A DNA stretch of 42,177 nt from the UHGV virus genome UHGV-0135963; one strand, given 5' to 3'. A program made the position numbers and the translations under genes. The stretch comes from a virus. Positions 4,915 to 13,071 of this stretch are shown one piece after another; position 1 is the stretch's first letter, and each line of letters starts with the position of its first letter. The notes beneath the pieces are model-generated. The model was not told where the DNA came from. It was given only the letters and a program-made list of their open reading frames with translations, and searched no databases.

Positions 4915-5607
4915 TCACTCTCCTTTGATGCGAATGCCAGCGGCACGGGAATCATTCCATCGCTTTACTTCTTCACGAATTACGTCAATGCATTCTTTCG
5001 AATCCATTAGGTAATCTTCATCAAAAAGCCTTTCCTGTTCGTTTTCTATCGCAACAATGATTGCTTCAACTAACTTTTGTGCCTGAGAACCACTTTCTAA
5101 CTCTGCAATGCGCTTCTCTGCGGCTTCCAGCTTCTCGCGCATATCGTCAACGTACTCGACCAGAGATCCGCCAGCAGGAATTTCGCACTCCTCGACCAGT
5201 TGGAAGTAGATATCAGCTGCGGCCCGTGTGTTGCTATGCCTAGCGTCGCCCATCTCACCTTCACGAAGAGCATCGCGTTCGGCGGTAAGATTGGCTATCT
5301 TGCTGTCTTTGCCTTCCAGTTCAACGCGCAGCTTCCCTACCGTTAGCGCAATATCCTCGTTCTCCTGGTCACGGCGTTTTATGTATTGCTGGTTTCTTTC
5401 CCGTTCATCCAGTAGTGCCAAAGCAATCTTTGGATTAAAGGCAGCAATAAATTCAGCGTTGTTTTTCAGAACGTGTTGCGCAATGGCCTGACTACTTAGT
5501 CGGACCTCATAACCACGTGCGCCACGGTGTGGTTTATATGAGTCCCAGTCTCCCCACGTTGCTTTCTCTGCCGCCTCACGCAGTGCCTGATAGTCAATCT
5601 TGCTCAT
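4915..5607 (-). CDS. Ead/Ea22-like protein
   Basis: 230 aa, acidic with coiled-coil segments. Position downstream of ea8.5. 4-bp start/stop overlap with the upstream gene. Confidence 0.55.
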   Translation of the reverse strand: MSKIDYQALREAAEKATWGDWDSYKPHRGARGYEVRLSSQAIAQHVLKNNAEFIAAFNPKIALALLDERERNQQYIKRRDQENEDIALTVGKLRVELEGKDSKIANLTAERDALREGEMGDARHSNTRAAADIYFQLVEECEIPAGGSLVEYVDDMREKLEAAEKRIAELESGSQAQKLVEAIIVAIENEQERLFDEDYLMDSKECIDVIREEVKRWNDSRAAGIRIKGE

Positions 5608-6146
5608 TGGATGACTCCTTTACGAAGCTGTTCTGCGATATCTTCGAGAACGCCATCAGAGAATGAACGGTCAAAATCGCCTTCCGGCGCATTGGCCATA
5701 AACTCAGTAGAGGTAAGAATCATCCGGGCAATATCCGCAGCGTTCTTCGCAGTATCATCAATAAAACCAGCTTTCCAGGCTGCCAACATTCTGTTCGCCA
5801 CAAAATAAGCGCCTTCCTTGCGTGCTTCAGTCTTCCCTTCAGCCAGGAAAGCATCGGTGGCAGGGGTCCCTTCAACCTTCAGCCCTATAGGGGCCAGGTA
5901 ATCCTTCAGACCAGCATTCTCAGCAGTCAGCGCCGCGCATTTAGCCTCAAGGTTATCAATCGTGATTCCAGCAGAACGACACTCCCGCAACGCCGTTTCC
6001 AGTTTTGATTCAAGTTCACCGAACTTACGCACCAGATATTCAGTGTTTGTTTCGTTCACCTTTAAATCTCGGGGGATGCATTTACCTTTCAGAAAACCAT
6101 CCATCTCAATTAGTGACATTTGTTTCATTTCTTCCAACTCCGCCAC
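5604..6146 (-). CDS. Hypothetical phage protein (180 aa)
   Basis: Long ORF in the same orientation as the PL operon, with coupled stop/start to neighbours. Confidence 0.55.
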
Positions 6147-7868: not shown

Positions 7869-8017
7869 TTCCTGCGATACCACGGAAGATTGATGGCTGA
7901 TTTCATCGCTTTATTTGCTTCAAGCCACATTTTTGAATCACCAATAAATCTGGCTATTACTGCTTTGTTCTGTGCAGCACGAAGCATCTGGTGATTGATG
8001 GCTATTTCATTGCGCAT
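7865..8017 (-). CDS. kil: Kil-like small protein (50 aa)
   Basis: Hand-translated MRNEIAINHQMLRAAQNKAVIARFIGDSKMWLEANKAMKSAINLPWYRRK. Motif A-x-F-I-G-D-x-K-M resembles lambda Kil (recalled). Located between cIII and erf as in lambda/P22. Confidence 0.4.
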   Translation of the reverse strand: MRNEIAINHQMLRAAQNKAVIARFIGDSKMWLEANKAMKSAINLPWYRRK

Positions 8018-8133
8018 AATAAGACCTCAACTCTTTTCCATCCGTCACGTAATTTACGGGTGATTCGTTCAAGTAAAGATTCATTTAGTTGGAAGGCACC
8101 CATGCGAGCGCCTCCCGCGATTGCGTAAATCAT
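8002..8133 (-). CDS. cIII: CIII-like protease (FtsH) inhibitor
   Basis: Hand-translated MIYAIAGGARMGAFQLNESLLERITRKLRDGWKRVEVLLCAMK. Contains the conserved CIII core ESLLERITRKLRDGWKR. AAGGAA RBS upstream. Confidence 0.7.
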   Translation of the reverse strand: MIYAIAGGARMGAFQLNESLLERITRKLRDGWKRVEVLLCAMK

Positions 8134-8156
8134 GGGTGGTTCCTTATGTTGGTTTA

Positions 8157-9125
8157 TTAGTAGGTTATTTTTGTTGCGAATACTTCGCCTTTTACGATGG
8201 CTGTTATGATATTTTTAGCAACATCTTCTGATGCGCCAACCTTGATAAGGTCAGCAAGTATTTTGTTATTTACTTCTTTCCGGTGAGCTTTATCCTTTGC
8301 TCTACGCTCTTCTTCGTCCTTGATTCTTTTTTCTTCTGCTATTCTGGCTTGCTCTTTTGCTTCAGCCTCGCGCCGGATTCGTTCAGCCTCCTCCTGTGCT
8401 TTTCGGCGTTCTGCTTCAATTGCCGCATGCTTTTCTCTTTCAGCTCGTTCTGCTGCCTCTTTTGCTTCGCGCTGTGCTCGTTGCTCGGCTTCAATGCGTT
8501 CACGCTCTGCACGTTCCGCTGCGGCCCTAGCTTCTGCTTCTCGCCTTGCTGCTGCTTCAATTTCGGCTTTTGCCTTTGCTTCGGCTTCTGCTCTGGCTTT
8601 CTCTTCAGCTTCTCTTTTTAAGCGTTCTTCATGCTCTCGCTTTTCCTGCTCCGCTTTGAGTCTTGCCTCTTCTCTTTGGCGGTCAAATTCGCGATCCATC
8701 AAAATCGCTATTTCATGGTCAGACTCAATTTGCTTTGCGAGAGCTTCAGCTGCTGCCTTAGCTTCTTCTTCGGCTTTAATCCGCGCCTGTTCTTCCTCAT
8801 AATCAGTAAGAGGCTGGCGCGCCTTGGCTTTCAGTTCATCAAGGCGATCACGCACTGTCTTGCGGTTGGCATCAATTAGCTTTGGAATTTCCTTCAGTTC
8901 AGCAACAAGGTCTTTGCCAAGACCATCGAGATATGTTTTCGTCTGCGCAACTTTATACGCCAGAGAAGCGATCTCCTTTCTGCCCTTTGCCGTTGTGATA
9001 TCAGGCACAAAGGACATAACTTCACGTTCAACCTTTTGAAGGATTTCTTCAATCTGGTCGGCAGACTGAAATACAGTCATTGCATTTGCTTTTTCAATAA
9101 CAACTAAATCTGTTACTTCACTCAT
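8157..9125 (-). CDS. Highly charged E/K/A/R-rich coiled-coil protein (322 aa)
   Basis: Central about 180 residues are low-complexity AEEEAKAAAE/REAEAKA repeats. Globular N- and C-terminal ends. The DNA shows matching GC-rich periodic repeats. Confidence 0.6.
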   Translation of the reverse strand: MSEVTDLVVIEKANAMTVFQSADQIEEILQKVEREVMSFVPDITTAKGRKEIASLAYKVAQTKTYLDGLGKDLVAELKEIPKLIDANRKTVRDRLDELKAKARQPLTDYEEEQARIKAEEEAKAAAEALAKQIESDHEIAILMDREFDRQREEARLKAEQEKREHEERLKREAEEKARAEAEAKAKAEIEAAARREAEARAAAERAERERIEAEQRAQREAKEAAERAEREKHAAIEAERRKAQEEAERIRREAEAKEQARIAEEKRIKDEEERRAKDKAHRKEVNNKILADLIKVGASEDVAKNIITAIVKGEVFATKITY

Positions 9126-9159
9126 ATATCCTCCTTCGTTGTATTCTTTAAAAACGCCC

Positions 9160-9528
9160 TCAGGCGGCTTTGATAGTCATATCATCTGAATCAAATATTC
9201 CTGATGTATCGATATCGGTAATTCTTATTCCTTCGCTACCATCCATTGGAGGCCATCCTTCCTGACCATTTCCATCATTCCAGTCGAACTCACACACAAC
9301 ACCATATGCATTTAAGTCGCTTGAAATTGCTATAAGCAGAGCATGTTGCGCCAGCATGATTAATACAGCATTTAATACAGAGCCGTGTTTATTGAGTCGG
9401 TATTCAGAGTCTGACCAGAAATTATTAATCTGGTGAAGTTTTTCCTCTGTCATTACGTCATGGTCGATTTCAATTTCTATTGATGCTTTCCAGTCGTAAT
9501 CAATGATGTATTTTTTGATGTTTGACAT
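9160..9528 (-). CDS. Hypothetical protein (122 aa), possibly Ea10-like
   Basis: Size and position (upstream of cIII in the PL operon) match lambda ea10. Sequence identity not verified. AT-rich. Confidence 0.5.
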   Translation of the reverse strand: MSNIKKYIIDYDWKASIEIEIDHDVMTEEKLHQINNFWSDSEYRLNKHGSVLNAVLIMLAQHALLIAISSDLNAYGVVCEFDWNDGNGQEGWPPMDGSEGIRITDIDTSGIFDSDDMTIKAA

Positions 9529-9547
9529 CTATTCATATCCTCACAGA

Positions 9548-9585
9548 TAAAAAATCGCCCTCACATTGGAGGGCAAAGAAGATTT
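9548..9585 (-). terminator. Candidate intrinsic terminator within the PL operon
   Basis: Minus strand gccctccaatgtgagggc followed by gattttttat: 6-bp GC stem plus U-run, in the gap between the 156-aa and 122-aa genes. Confidence 0.4.
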
Positions 9586-9678
9586 CCAATAATCAGAACA
9601 AGTCGGCTCCTGTTTAGTTACGAGCGACATTGCTCCGTGTATTCACTCGTTGGAATGAATACACAGTGCTTATTCGTA

Positions 9679-10149
9679 CTAATAAAACACCCAATTTTCT
9701 GTTTCTTGGTTGTGTCCAAAGTTATATTCAATATCTGGTATTGATGTATCAATATTCTTCATCCCATCAACAAGAGTTGATACAACAGCCAAATCTTGTT
9801 TGATTCTCATCAAATGGTACTTCTTCCGGCGCAATAAACTTTCAATGGCAAGTTTCTTCGTCGGGAATGCAAAAGATCTTTCGGCATTTTTTGCTACTTT
9901 CTTAATTGCATATCTATTTCTCCTTTGTTTCCATTCCTGTAACCACTGATTTGGTGCTGGTTTAAAATTAACAATCCAATGCGCAGGAACCAACCATGCA
10001 TAATGATCTGTCTGATGAAAAGCTATATATTGAAGTGCGAATATTTTTATTCCATCTTCTTCAACTGTCGCTTGGAATCTCCAGAAAACAGGCATTCCAT
10101 CATGTTCAGTTTCTGATTCAGGAAAAGGTACGCTCCATGATTTTGTCAT
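9679..10149 (-). CDS. Hypothetical protein (156 aa), AT-rich accessory gene
   Basis: ORF with no recognisable motif; Trp-rich. AT-rich relative to the flanking lambda-like genes. Confidence 0.5.
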   Translation of the reverse strand: MTKSWSVPFPESETEHDGMPVFWRFQATVEEDGIKIFALQYIAFHQTDHYAWLVPAHWIVNFKPAPNQWLQEWKQRRNRYAIKKVAKNAERSFAFPTKKLAIESLLRRKKYHLMRIKQDLAVVSTLVDGMKNIDTSIPDIEYNFGHNQETENWVFY

Positions 10150-10214
10150 ATCTCACCTCAAATAATTCAGTGCTGTGTTTATTCTGTTGTTTATGCCAAA
10201 AATAAAGGCCACCG

Positions 10215-10415
10215 TCAGGCAGCCTTGTTATTCTGTTTACCAAGTTCTCTGGCAATCATTTCCGTCGTTCGAATTGCCCATTTATCGACATATTTCCCAT
10301 CTTCCATCACAGGAAACATTTCTTCAGGCTTAACCATGCATTCCGATTGCAGCTTGCATCCATTGCATCGTTTGAATTGTCCACACCATTGATTTTTATC
10401 AATAGTCGTAGTCAT
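10215..10415 (-). CDS. ral: Ral-like restriction-alleviation protein (66 aa, four Cys)
   Basis: MTTTIDKNQWCGQFKRCNGCKLQSECMVKPEE... Size (66 aa), position immediately downstream of N and Cys pattern match lambda Ral as recalled. Confidence 0.55.
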   Translation of the reverse strand: MTTTIDKNQWCGQFKRCNGCKLQSECMVKPEEMFPVMEDGKYVDKWAIRTTEMIARELGKQNNKAA

Positions 10416-10539
10416 ACGGATAGTCCTGGTATTGTTCCATCACATCCTGAGGATGCTCTTCGAACTCTTCAAATTCTTCTTCCATATATCACCTCAAATA
10501 AGTGGTTTTCCGCGAAAATAAATACGTTTAAGTTACCTG

Positions 10540-10677
10540 TTATTTATCCCACCAGGTTCCGTATCTATCTATCCAGTTACACCAATCATCGACACTCCAT
10601 TTTGTTGTGTCGCATTTTGGCAATTGGCATGAATATCTGCCTTCTTTGTAAAGTCGGCGTTTGATTTTCTTGAGCAT
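10540..10677 (-). CDS. Small Cys-containing ORF (45 aa) coupled to N
   Basis: Hand-translated MLKKIKRRLYKEGRYSCQLPKCDTTKWSVDDWCNWIDRYGTWWDK. Strong SD (GAGGTGG) 5 nt before the ATG, directly after the N stop. Confidence 0.35.
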   Translation of the reverse strand: MLKKIKRRLYKEGRYSCQLPKCDTTKWSVDDWCNWIDRYGTWWDK

Positions 10678-10684
10678 GACCACC

Positions 10685-11017
10685 TCAATCGTAATAAGCT
10701 GGAATTGATTTTCCGCGTTGCTTCTGGCGGCCTGAGCAAGTCACACCCATTTCACTGCGTGGCTTGCTGTACCATGTGCGCTGATTCTTGCGCTCAATAC
10801 GTTGCAGGTTGCTTTCAATCTGTTCGTGGTATTCAGCCAGCACTGTAAGGTCTATCGGATTCAGTGCGCTTTCTACTCGTGATTTCGGTTTGCGATTCAG
10901 CGAGAGAATAGGGCGGTTAACTGGTTTTGCGCTTACCCCAACCAACAGGGGATTTGCTGCTTTCCATTGAGCCTGTTTCTCTGCGCGACGTTCGCGGCGG
11001 CGTGTTTGTGCATCCAT
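10685..11017 (-). CDS. N: Antitermination protein N
   Basis: MDAQTRRRERRAEKQAQWKAANPLLVGVSAKPVNRPILSLNRKPKSRVESALNPIDLTVLAEYH... matches lambda N including the arginine-rich boxB-binding motif. The ORF track extends 30 codons upstream (to 11107); I place the start at MDAQ. Confidence 0.85.
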   Translation of the reverse strand: MDAQTRRRERRAEKQAQWKAANPLLVGVSAKPVNRPILSLNRKPKSRVESALNPIDLTVLAEYHEQIESNLQRIERKNQRTWYSKPRSEMGVTCSGRQKQRGKSIPAYYD

Positions 11018-11127
11018 CTGGATTCTCCTGTCAGTTAGCTTTGAGTAACGCGCCGTGATGCTTATCTCCACGGTTGCTGTCTTGCAGCTGCATTTCGCGC
11101 TATTCAAAGCTTTCTGCTTTGAATGCT

Positions 11128-11158
11128 GCCCTTCTTCAGGGCTTAATTTTTAAGAGCG
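11128..11158 (-). promoter_or_regulatory. nutL (boxA CGCTCTTA, boxB GCCCTGAAGAAGGGC)
   Basis: Reverse complement of 11128..11158 reads CGCTCTTAAAAATTAAGCCCTGAAGAAGGGC, the lambda nutL boxA and boxB hairpin. Confidence 0.85.
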
Positions 11159-11202
11159 TCACCTTCATGGTGGTTAGTGCGTCCTGCTGATGGCTTAAAA
11201 TT

Positions 11203-11270
11203 ACAAGAAAGATTGTATGTTGTAAACAAGAAATATTGTAAATGGAGGTGCAAAAAACAAACTCCATTGT
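11203..11270. promoter_or_regulatory. OL/PL region with three 434-type 14-bp operators
   Basis: ACAAGAAAGATTGT (11203..11216), ACAAGAAATATTGT (11226..11239), ACAAACTCCATTGT (11257..11270). The ACAA-6N-TTGT pattern is typical of phage 434 operators. Confidence 0.7.
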
Positions 11271-11320
11271 TTTTAAACGGAAAATAGTTTGTTTTTGGGT
11301 TACTGAGATTGAGGTGGGGA

Positions 11321-12673
<1,353 letters not shown>

Positions 12674-12681
12674 GACATTCC

Positions 12682-12713
12682 CGCTCTTACACATCCCAGC
12701 CCTGAAAAAGGGC
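12682..12713 (+). promoter_or_regulatory. nutR (boxA CGCTCTTA, boxB GCCCTGAAAAAGGGC)
   Basis: CGCTCTTACACATCCCAGCCCTGAAAAAGGGC downstream of cro, near-identical to lambda nutR. Confidence 0.85.
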
Positions 12714-12789
12714 ATTACCAGAAACAAATCTCTATGGTTTTGCGTTTCTTTGCGAAGCCAACTCTATCTAATCATTAAGGAAATTATCT

Positions 12790-13071
12790 ATGGGTACTAT
12801 TGCAACTAAAAGCAAGAAAGCGGCTCGCATCGAGTCAGCCTTGCTGAACAAACTGGCACTGATGGGGCAGAAGACATTCGCTCGAGCAATGGGGGTTCCT
12901 GAATATCAGGTAAGCCGATGGAAGAATGGTTTCTTCTCGCAGGTAAGCATGATGCTGGCTGTTCTGGAATACGGAATCGAAGACGATGAAATGGCTGAGC
13001 TGACTAAGCGGCTTGCCAATTACCTGACAAAAGAAAAAGCCCCGAAGAACGGCGAATTCTTCGAGGCCTGA
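12790..13071 (+). CDS. cII: CII transcriptional activator
   Basis: 93 aa. [18 protein letters not shown]...SRWK...[25 protein letters not shown] parallels lambda CII. AAGGA RBS upstream. Confidence 0.8.

Follow-up and report, generated by a model that had tools for sequence, protein, structure and literature searches.

In phage lambda, the early-left (PL) operon encodes Ea10 (lambdap45; DUF2528; legacy label 'ssb'), described in the literature as an abundant, non-essential early protein. Its function has not been assigned for about 40 years. Lambda also carries, between ea10 and ral, LPR1/PreS, an Hfq-bound small RNA (sRNA) whose 3' end is the terminator tL2a; PreS is produced during the lytic cycle and acts as an activator of host dnaN translation (bioRxiv 10.1101/2024.10.31.621285). 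A third element, a protein gene annotated as gp45 in phage HK97 and as L0079/ST933Wp19 in phage 933W, is absent from lambda and from P22. Here, we present a locus in which these three elements stand next to each other. It is found in UHGV virus genome UHGV-0135963, a stretch of 42,177 nucleotides (nts) to which we refer as the window. The window is a P22-like/lambdoid phage, and its best matches overall are Sf101, vB_EcoP-720R6, phiv205-1, mEp043, HK633 and CUS-3. A first-pass annotation had proposed for positions 9,160 to 10,149 a pair of AT-rich accessory genes of the PL operon, one encoding 156 amino acids (aa), which we name orf156, and one encoding 122 aa, with a hairpin and a U-run between them.

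Identity of the three modules

The anatomy of the locus and the identity of its parts can be read directly from alignments to described phages. Both open reading frames (ORFs) are on the minus strand, with the coordinates and lengths originally given (Table 1), and both are indeed AT-rich: the GC content is 36% for the orf156 cassette and 38.5% for the 122-aa gene, compared to 47% for the window. The 122-aa gene, for which a correspondence to lambda ea10 had been suggested by size and position, is ea10, with 122/122 residues identical to the lambda protein. It matches PF10800 (DUF2528) at profile positions 1-104 of 104 with 160.6 bits (cutoff 22; E 1.8e-47), and it shares with lambda ea10 the strand, the Shine-Dalgarno context and the location downstream of tL2a/PreS, with the start codon 20 nts past the tL2a U-run. 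The upstream neighbour of orf156, previously called Ral-like, is a true Ral, identical to that of lambda in 65/66 residues and matching PF11058 end to end (model positions 1-66 of 66). As for orf156, it matches phrog_1636 over its full length (positions 1-156 of 156, E 1e-111), and it is the gene annotated gp45 in HK97 (98.1% aa identity) and L0079/ST933Wp19 in 933W; the copies in Shiga-toxin phages have 98.7% aa identity. The first-pass annotation described a Trp-rich protein with no recognisable motif. Both descriptions hold (the 18.6 kDa protein has 7 Trp), but the existing annotations in HK97 and 933W had been missed.

Between the two genes there is a 121-nt non-coding block (9549..9669, minus strand) in which one loop base varies across the window, lambda, HK97 and 933W, and everything else is invariant. 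The last 88 nts of the block align to lambda LPR1/PreS without gaps and with 87/88 identities, which places the window copy within PreS/LPR1 as delimited by its authors (at least 92% identity and at most 3 gaps to lambda LPR1). Like lambda PreS, the window copy lies between ea10 and ral and has a GC-rich hairpin followed by a poly-U tail, as in Hfq-type 3' ends. A terminator scan identifies the tL2a stem at 9576..9555 (minus strand; 8 pairs, 5 of them G-C) and the U-run TTTTTT at 9549-9554, and the RNA fold has z-scores of -4.2 and -4.7. The hairpin with a U-run reported earlier as separating the two ORFs is therefore present, but it is part of the larger PreS/tL2a block, whose identity had not been recognised, and the annotation of this intergenic hairpin should be corrected to PreS/tL2a. 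Rfam 15 has no model for PreS, and it reports no family at E <= 1 across positions 8000-13000. Abutting the 5' end of the 88-nt PreS is a 12-bp hairpin whose conservation across the window, lambda, HK97 and 933W is 100%, and the whole stretch of hairpin plus PreS folds far better than shuffled controls (z = -4.7). One possibility is that RNases recognise this hairpin as a processing signal, freeing PreS from the PL transcript. Because of the near-identity to lambda PreS, we infer that PreS would be made in the window phage as it is in lambda, with Hfq binding, lytic expression and activation of dnaN. The precursor would be a different one. Unlike in lambda, where it is the ral 3' untranslated region (3'UTR), in the window a protein gene ends 9 nts upstream of the conserved block, and therefore the precursor would be the orf156 3'UTR.

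Compared to lambda, orf156 is a clean insertion of about 0.5 kb between the post-ral hairpin and the 121-nt PreS block. The order in lambda is ral, a hairpin, the junction between ...AAACACT and GCACTGTGTATTC..., and PreS. The window carries at that junction a cassette of ~0.5 kb in which the orf156 coding sequence is preceded by a 14-nt leader, ATTTGAGGTGAGAT, and followed by a 9-nt spacer. The terminator-like hairpin right after ral is also found in lambda, and it is the left limit of the lambda homology ahead of the insertion. The leader and the 9-nt spacer also flank the gene in HK97 and 933W, where N is the upstream gene, and the leader marks the 5' boundary of the cassette. We observe the hexamer GCACTG at both insertion junctions (9664-9669 and 10167-10172, minus strand), of which lambda has a single copy; this repetition may stem from microhomology used in the recombination, or from chance. 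The order ral-orf156-PreS-ea10 is that of a rare recombinant: among 5426 complete E. coli genomes, one has a single stretch matching 96% of segment 9100-10450, and no record of the phage collection has one.

We consider it probable that the locus combines three mosaic modules of the lambdoid PL operon that are independent of each other; that orf156 is a nucleic-acid-linked accessory protein directed at the host or at its defences is a more tentative proposal. Going leftward, the first module is orf156, an early accessory gene that belongs to the HK97 gp45 / 933W L0079 family. The second is the 121-nt block, to be read as a hairpin, then the Hfq-dependent PreS/LPR1, ending in tL2a. The third is lambda ea10. 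The three would be expressed from PL by N-mediated read-through of the post-ral hairpin. The orf156 gene has its own Shine-Dalgarno but neither a promoter nor a terminator of its own, and our terminator/promoter scan of the window finds no promoter-like site upstream of it on its strand. Since the post-ral hairpin is upstream of orf156, we expect orf156, PreS and ea10 all to require PL and N read-through for their expression.

Relatives of orf156 and genes around the PreS block

Out of 5426 complete E. coli genomes, 598 (~11%) carry orf156, in as many as 4 copies, and many Shiga-toxin phages have it too; in every record examined, the annotation is 'hypothetical protein'. Like ea10, orf156 is a genuine gene and not a chance reading frame. 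It is early and conserved, and it evolves under purifying selection. We identified 29 distinct alleles, all of them intact. The alleles have 26 variable sites, 23 of which are at third codon positions, and the variation is mostly synonymous (22 synonymous versus 4 non-synonymous). The N-terminal region of the protein is acidic and of beta structure, its centre is very basic, a long helix is present, and the C-terminal tail is conserved and acidic/aromatic. The centre (residues 61-125) has an isoelectric point of 11.1 and 17 Lys plus Arg in 65 residues, and the AlphaFold2 (AF2) model includes a beta-hairpin region and a 34-residue helix. Among 19 homologues, down to 55% identity, 42 residues are invariant, and these include many of the Trp, the basic core RYAIKKVAKSAERSFAFPxKxLAxESLLRRKKYHLMRLKQD and the tail YNFGHNxETExWxF.

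Close homologues (55-98% identity) are found only in prophages of Enterobacterales (Escherichia, Pectobacterium, Brenneria, Rosenbergiella, Symbiopectobacterium, Cronobacter and Serratia). In a profile search covering 1.84 billion representatives we identify 83 proteins at E <= 1e-3, all of them unannotated, and most of them of 130-155 aa and with the same layout (phrog_13631, phrog_25384). Two long matches from the deep search, P0181 and P0193, considered as possible domain fusions, are repetitive and spurious. Sequence searches of orf156 against Pfam, NCBIfam, PADLOC and PDB are empty, as are those using its 42-member superfamily alignment, except for scattered PADLOC matches; these are single matches of the 42 family members with E >= 0.001, and PADLOC matches neither orf156 nor Ea10. 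A search of the literature on L0079, HK97 gp45, their accession numbers and DUF2528 found no functional study, and neither the orf156 nor the ea10 sequence is in the supplementary files of a published phage accessory-gene screen.

Every relative that we examined is placed in an early region. In HK97, 933W and many contigs, orf156 comes directly after N. For the contigs with an N type ending in ...GRQKMKLGSKPLI, the TGA stop of N is inside the orf156 Shine-Dalgarno, and the 58 nts that separate N from orf156 in HK97 (L086, 2443-2500) and 933W (L001, 5002-5059) are a remnant of that ...GRQKMKLGSKPLI N 3' end. HK97 has no terminator-like hairpin between N and orf156, and N, orf156 and PreS may there form one immediate-early transcript ending at tL2a, unlike in the window, where the post-ral hairpin precedes orf156. 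Other homologues have other neighbours. The Rosenbergiella homologue heads the left operon, a Vibrio phage has its homologue between a Cro-like helix-turn-helix (HTH) gene and Rha, and a Salmonella phage has it ahead of a ParB-HTH gene. In four unrelated prophages, distant homologues (about 21-63% identity) are 0-2 small genes upstream of xis/int, and one of these operons (L214) also encodes an Acb2/Tad1-like hairpin protein and an orphan DNA methylase. Near the homologue in the Salmonella phage vB_SpuS_NX263 (L089), a 178-aa gene (5365-5901) is labelled 'DNA polymerase III beta subunit', a label that drew our interest because PreS targets dnaN. The label has no Pfam support and is probably wrong, and on inspection we see no clamp-binding motif in orf156.

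We measured linkage in IMG/VR contigs with orf156, of which 71 have enough downstream sequence and 76 allow the upstream gene to be identified. The PreS block is downstream of orf156 in 71/71 loci, immediately in 63 and past a short insert in 8, and the tight linkage is because of the 9-nt distance and common descent. The next gene after orf156/PreS is ea10 in 28 loci (39%), orf322 (a 322-aa ORF described below) in 8, and something else in 35; the gene upstream is ral in 3/76, and N of several types or others in the rest. In an independent sample of PreS contigs, anchored on the exact 30-nt PreS core, upstream of PreS we find ral in 27 cases, orf156 in 15 (of 98 blocks), and the remainder are about 20 other ORF clusters, not all of which are likely genes. 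Nine of these other upstream ORFs were scanned and have no functional PHROG annotation, with weak partial matches to transcription regulation for two of them. Downstream of PreS in this sample, ea10 occurs in 36 cases, and orf322, kil, cIII-type, P22 gene-17-like and other genes also occur. The occupants of both sides include ral and P22 gene 17 homologues, and most have no assigned function. The distribution points to the PreS block being a conserved recombination anchor, with an accessory-gene hotspot on each side.

P22 gene 17, annotated 'allows growth on phage Fels2 lysogen', has in P22 the same operon interval, from ral to c3 (L217, 2415-2726). Homologues of this gene fill the slot after PreS, that of ea10 in the window, in some E. 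coli phage contigs (L028, L062, L070, L085 and other IMG/VR loci), and therefore at least one characterised counter-exclusion gene uses the hotspot. The likeness to our genes is positional only, since P22 gp17 is homologous neither to Ea10 nor to orf156 (hhalign probability under 2%).

Possible functions of orf156 and Ea10

For the biochemical activity of orf156, we infer, as a tentative proposal, a small soluble early protein that would bind nucleic acid, or a nucleic-acid-bound host factor, via the basic centre and the helix, and whose role would be dispensable and directed at the host or its defences, as opposed to a core role in the phage. A wider proposal, which we regard as doubtful, is that the orf156 family is a new, widely distributed immediate-early phage class that neutralises a conserved host factor or defence. 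Just as doubtful is a strict counter-defence role, in which orf156 would block one particular immune or exclusion system of the host, as do Ral, P22 gp17, Ocr and the Acb2/Tad1-type sponges. The slot into which orf156 is swapped holds ral in other phages, and the slot on the far side of PreS can hold P22 gene 17 homologues. In the many phages where N is directly followed by orf156 and no terminator-like hairpin intervenes, very early expression is expected; the gene is dispensable and patchily distributed, and one distant homologue shares its operon with the Acb2/Tad1-like gene and the orphan DNA methylase. However, orf156 resembles no known anti-defence protein, it does not appear in the supplementary text of the published screen, and members of the family are found in phages of hosts as different as Vibrio, Rhizobium, Delftia, Cellulophaga and Tenacibaculum, a breadth that suits a universal target better than a single defence system. 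The idea of anti-restriction or anti-defence has a purely positional basis, namely ral and P22 gene 17 homologues in the slots around PreS. Rather unlikely, in our view, is a phage-directed regulator or a cofactor of DNA transactions (transcription, excision/integration or replication). The basic centre with its long helix suits such a role, as do the homologues near xis/int in four unrelated prophages and those next to the Cro-like HTH gene and Rha or ahead of the ParB-HTH gene. In E. coli lambdoid phages, however, orf156 is far from int/xis and beside N, close relatives with the same regulatory circuitry lack it, and we find in it no HTH, ribbon-helix-helix or AP2/Int-arm signal. An AP2 / lambda Int arm-type domain, prompted by an SRFAF-TKEEA motif, was rejected, with hhalign probabilities of 0.5% and 0.7% against provisional reference sequences.

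Three further readings tie orf156 to its neighbours or to the lysogen. A role together with PreS, for instance as an RNA-binding protein for sRNA processing, stability or target choice, would agree with the Arg/Lys-rich centre, with the PreS block following orf156 in all 71 informative E. coli-type loci, and with the conserved hairpin, whose position is precisely between the stop codon of orf156 and the 5' end of PreS. We judge it very unlikely: PreS is made and functional in lambda, which has no orf156; orf156 is upstream of just 15/98 PreS blocks in the independent sample; and no PreS block follows the homologues of 56-63% identity in Pectobacterium, Brenneria and Rosenbergiella. Even less probable is that orf156 is a 'moron' expressed by the prophage for defence or superinfection exclusion, like sieB or rexAB nearby in lambda. 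An AT-rich, cassette-like insertion with a patchy distribution has the look of one, and sieB is at neighbouring positions in lambda and P22, but orf156 is embedded in the repressed PL operon, it lacks its own promoter-like site and terminator, its Shine-Dalgarno contains the N stop in some phages, and the protein has no PADLOC match and no membrane segment. We give the least credence to the functional unit that the term 'gene pair' of the first-pass annotation implied, such as an anti-restriction/anti-defence pair downstream of ral. The two genes are adjacent and co-oriented in the window and in Stx phages, both are AT-rich, and ral is next door. Still, ea10 follows orf156 in just 28/71 loci, a conserved sRNA/terminator block separates the genes, distant orf156 homologues have no DUF2528 neighbour, and each gene occurs without the other, ea10 in lambda and orf156 in HK97. 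From these linkage data, ea10 and orf156 are inherited independently and appear not to form a functional pair; the accessory, non-essential-type status that had been assigned to both PL genes stands.

For Ea10, the AF2 model (pLDDT 94.4) is an alpha+beta sandwich and not an oligonucleotide-binding (OB) fold, and there is no Pfam match to a single-stranded DNA-binding protein (SSB) or to an OB fold; the 'ssb' label of ea10, carried by many records, is therefore unsupported. We also considered an SPFH / Band-7 domain (HflC, HflK, stomatin, prohibitin), and found no profile support against HflC or HflK. That Ea10 could be a soluble SPFH-domain mimic interfering with HflK/HflC-FtsH, acting beside cIII in adjusting CII stability and the choice between lysis and lysogeny, we take to be very improbable.

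Neighbouring genes and comparison with described phages

On the minus strand, the order of the PL operon is cI, an N-like gene, ral, orf156, ea10 and orf322, followed by cIII, kil, erf and an SSB-like gene. Table 1 gives the coordinates.

Table 1. Features of the PL region of the window, and orf156 homologues linked to xis/int in other prophages.
Feature	Position	Strand	Basis
cI	11722-12354	-	PL-operon gene listing
158-aa ORF	11321-11797	-	phrog_2651 match
N-like gene	10685-11107	-	PL-operon gene listing
47-aa Cys/Trp-rich small ORF	10540-10683	-	
ral (restriction alleviation), neighbour upstream of orf156	10215..10415	-	Pfam PF11058, E 1.4e-48
Terminator-like hairpin right after ral (9 pairs, then TATTTTTGG)	10205..10226	-	Terminator scan, lambda alignment
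14-nt leader ATTTGAGGTGAGAT with Shine-Dalgarno	10150..10163	-	Alignment
orf156 (156 aa)	9679..10149	-	ORF listing, phrog_1636 match
Conserved 12-bp hairpin	9637..9664	-	Alignment and RNA fold
PreS / LPR1 sRNA (88 nt, tL2a 3' end)	9549..9636	-	Lambda identity, terminator scan
ea10 (DUF2528), 122 aa	9160..9528	-	Lambda identity, PF10800
orf322, Lys/Ala/Glu-rich coiled-coil ORF of 322 aa (phrog_1376)	8157..9125	-	Between ea10 and cIII
Distant orf156 homologues linked to xis/int	L003 6001-6477; L004 6001-6477; L212 5001-5438; L214 5001-5444		

Some of the neighbours are also of interest. Records of orf322 in some cases label it 'TolA' or 'coiled-coil', and in other phages it is directly 3' of the PreS block, which is the place of ea10 in the window. 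The 158-aa ORF is directly downstream of cI, the position of rexAB in lambda; a hydrophobic, signal-like stretch follows an internal Met, and the ORF may encode an envelope protein expressed in the lysogen. The 47-aa ORF lies between N and ral, and another viral contig has a near-identical counterpart of 45 aa upstream of its PreS block.

All three parts of the locus have already been annotated or published, as lambda ea10, as HK97 gp45 / 933W L0079, and as lambda PreS/tL2a, and their combination is ordinary mosaicism and not a new system. The orf156 gene belongs to a broad, uncharacterised phage family, which makes it a reasonable candidate for screens of anti-defence or host-takeover functions. 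The placement between ral and the cIII module given by the first-pass annotation is right as to the PL operon, but orf322 intervenes between ea10 and cIII. In this respect the window is unlike lambda, as it also is in having orf156 between ral and the PreS block. It differs from HK97 and 933W in that N is directly upstream of gp45 / L0079 there, while in the window ral and its hairpin are upstream. Every part is at least 98% identical to known features of lambda, HK97 and 933W, and what is known about lambdoid phages is left unchanged.

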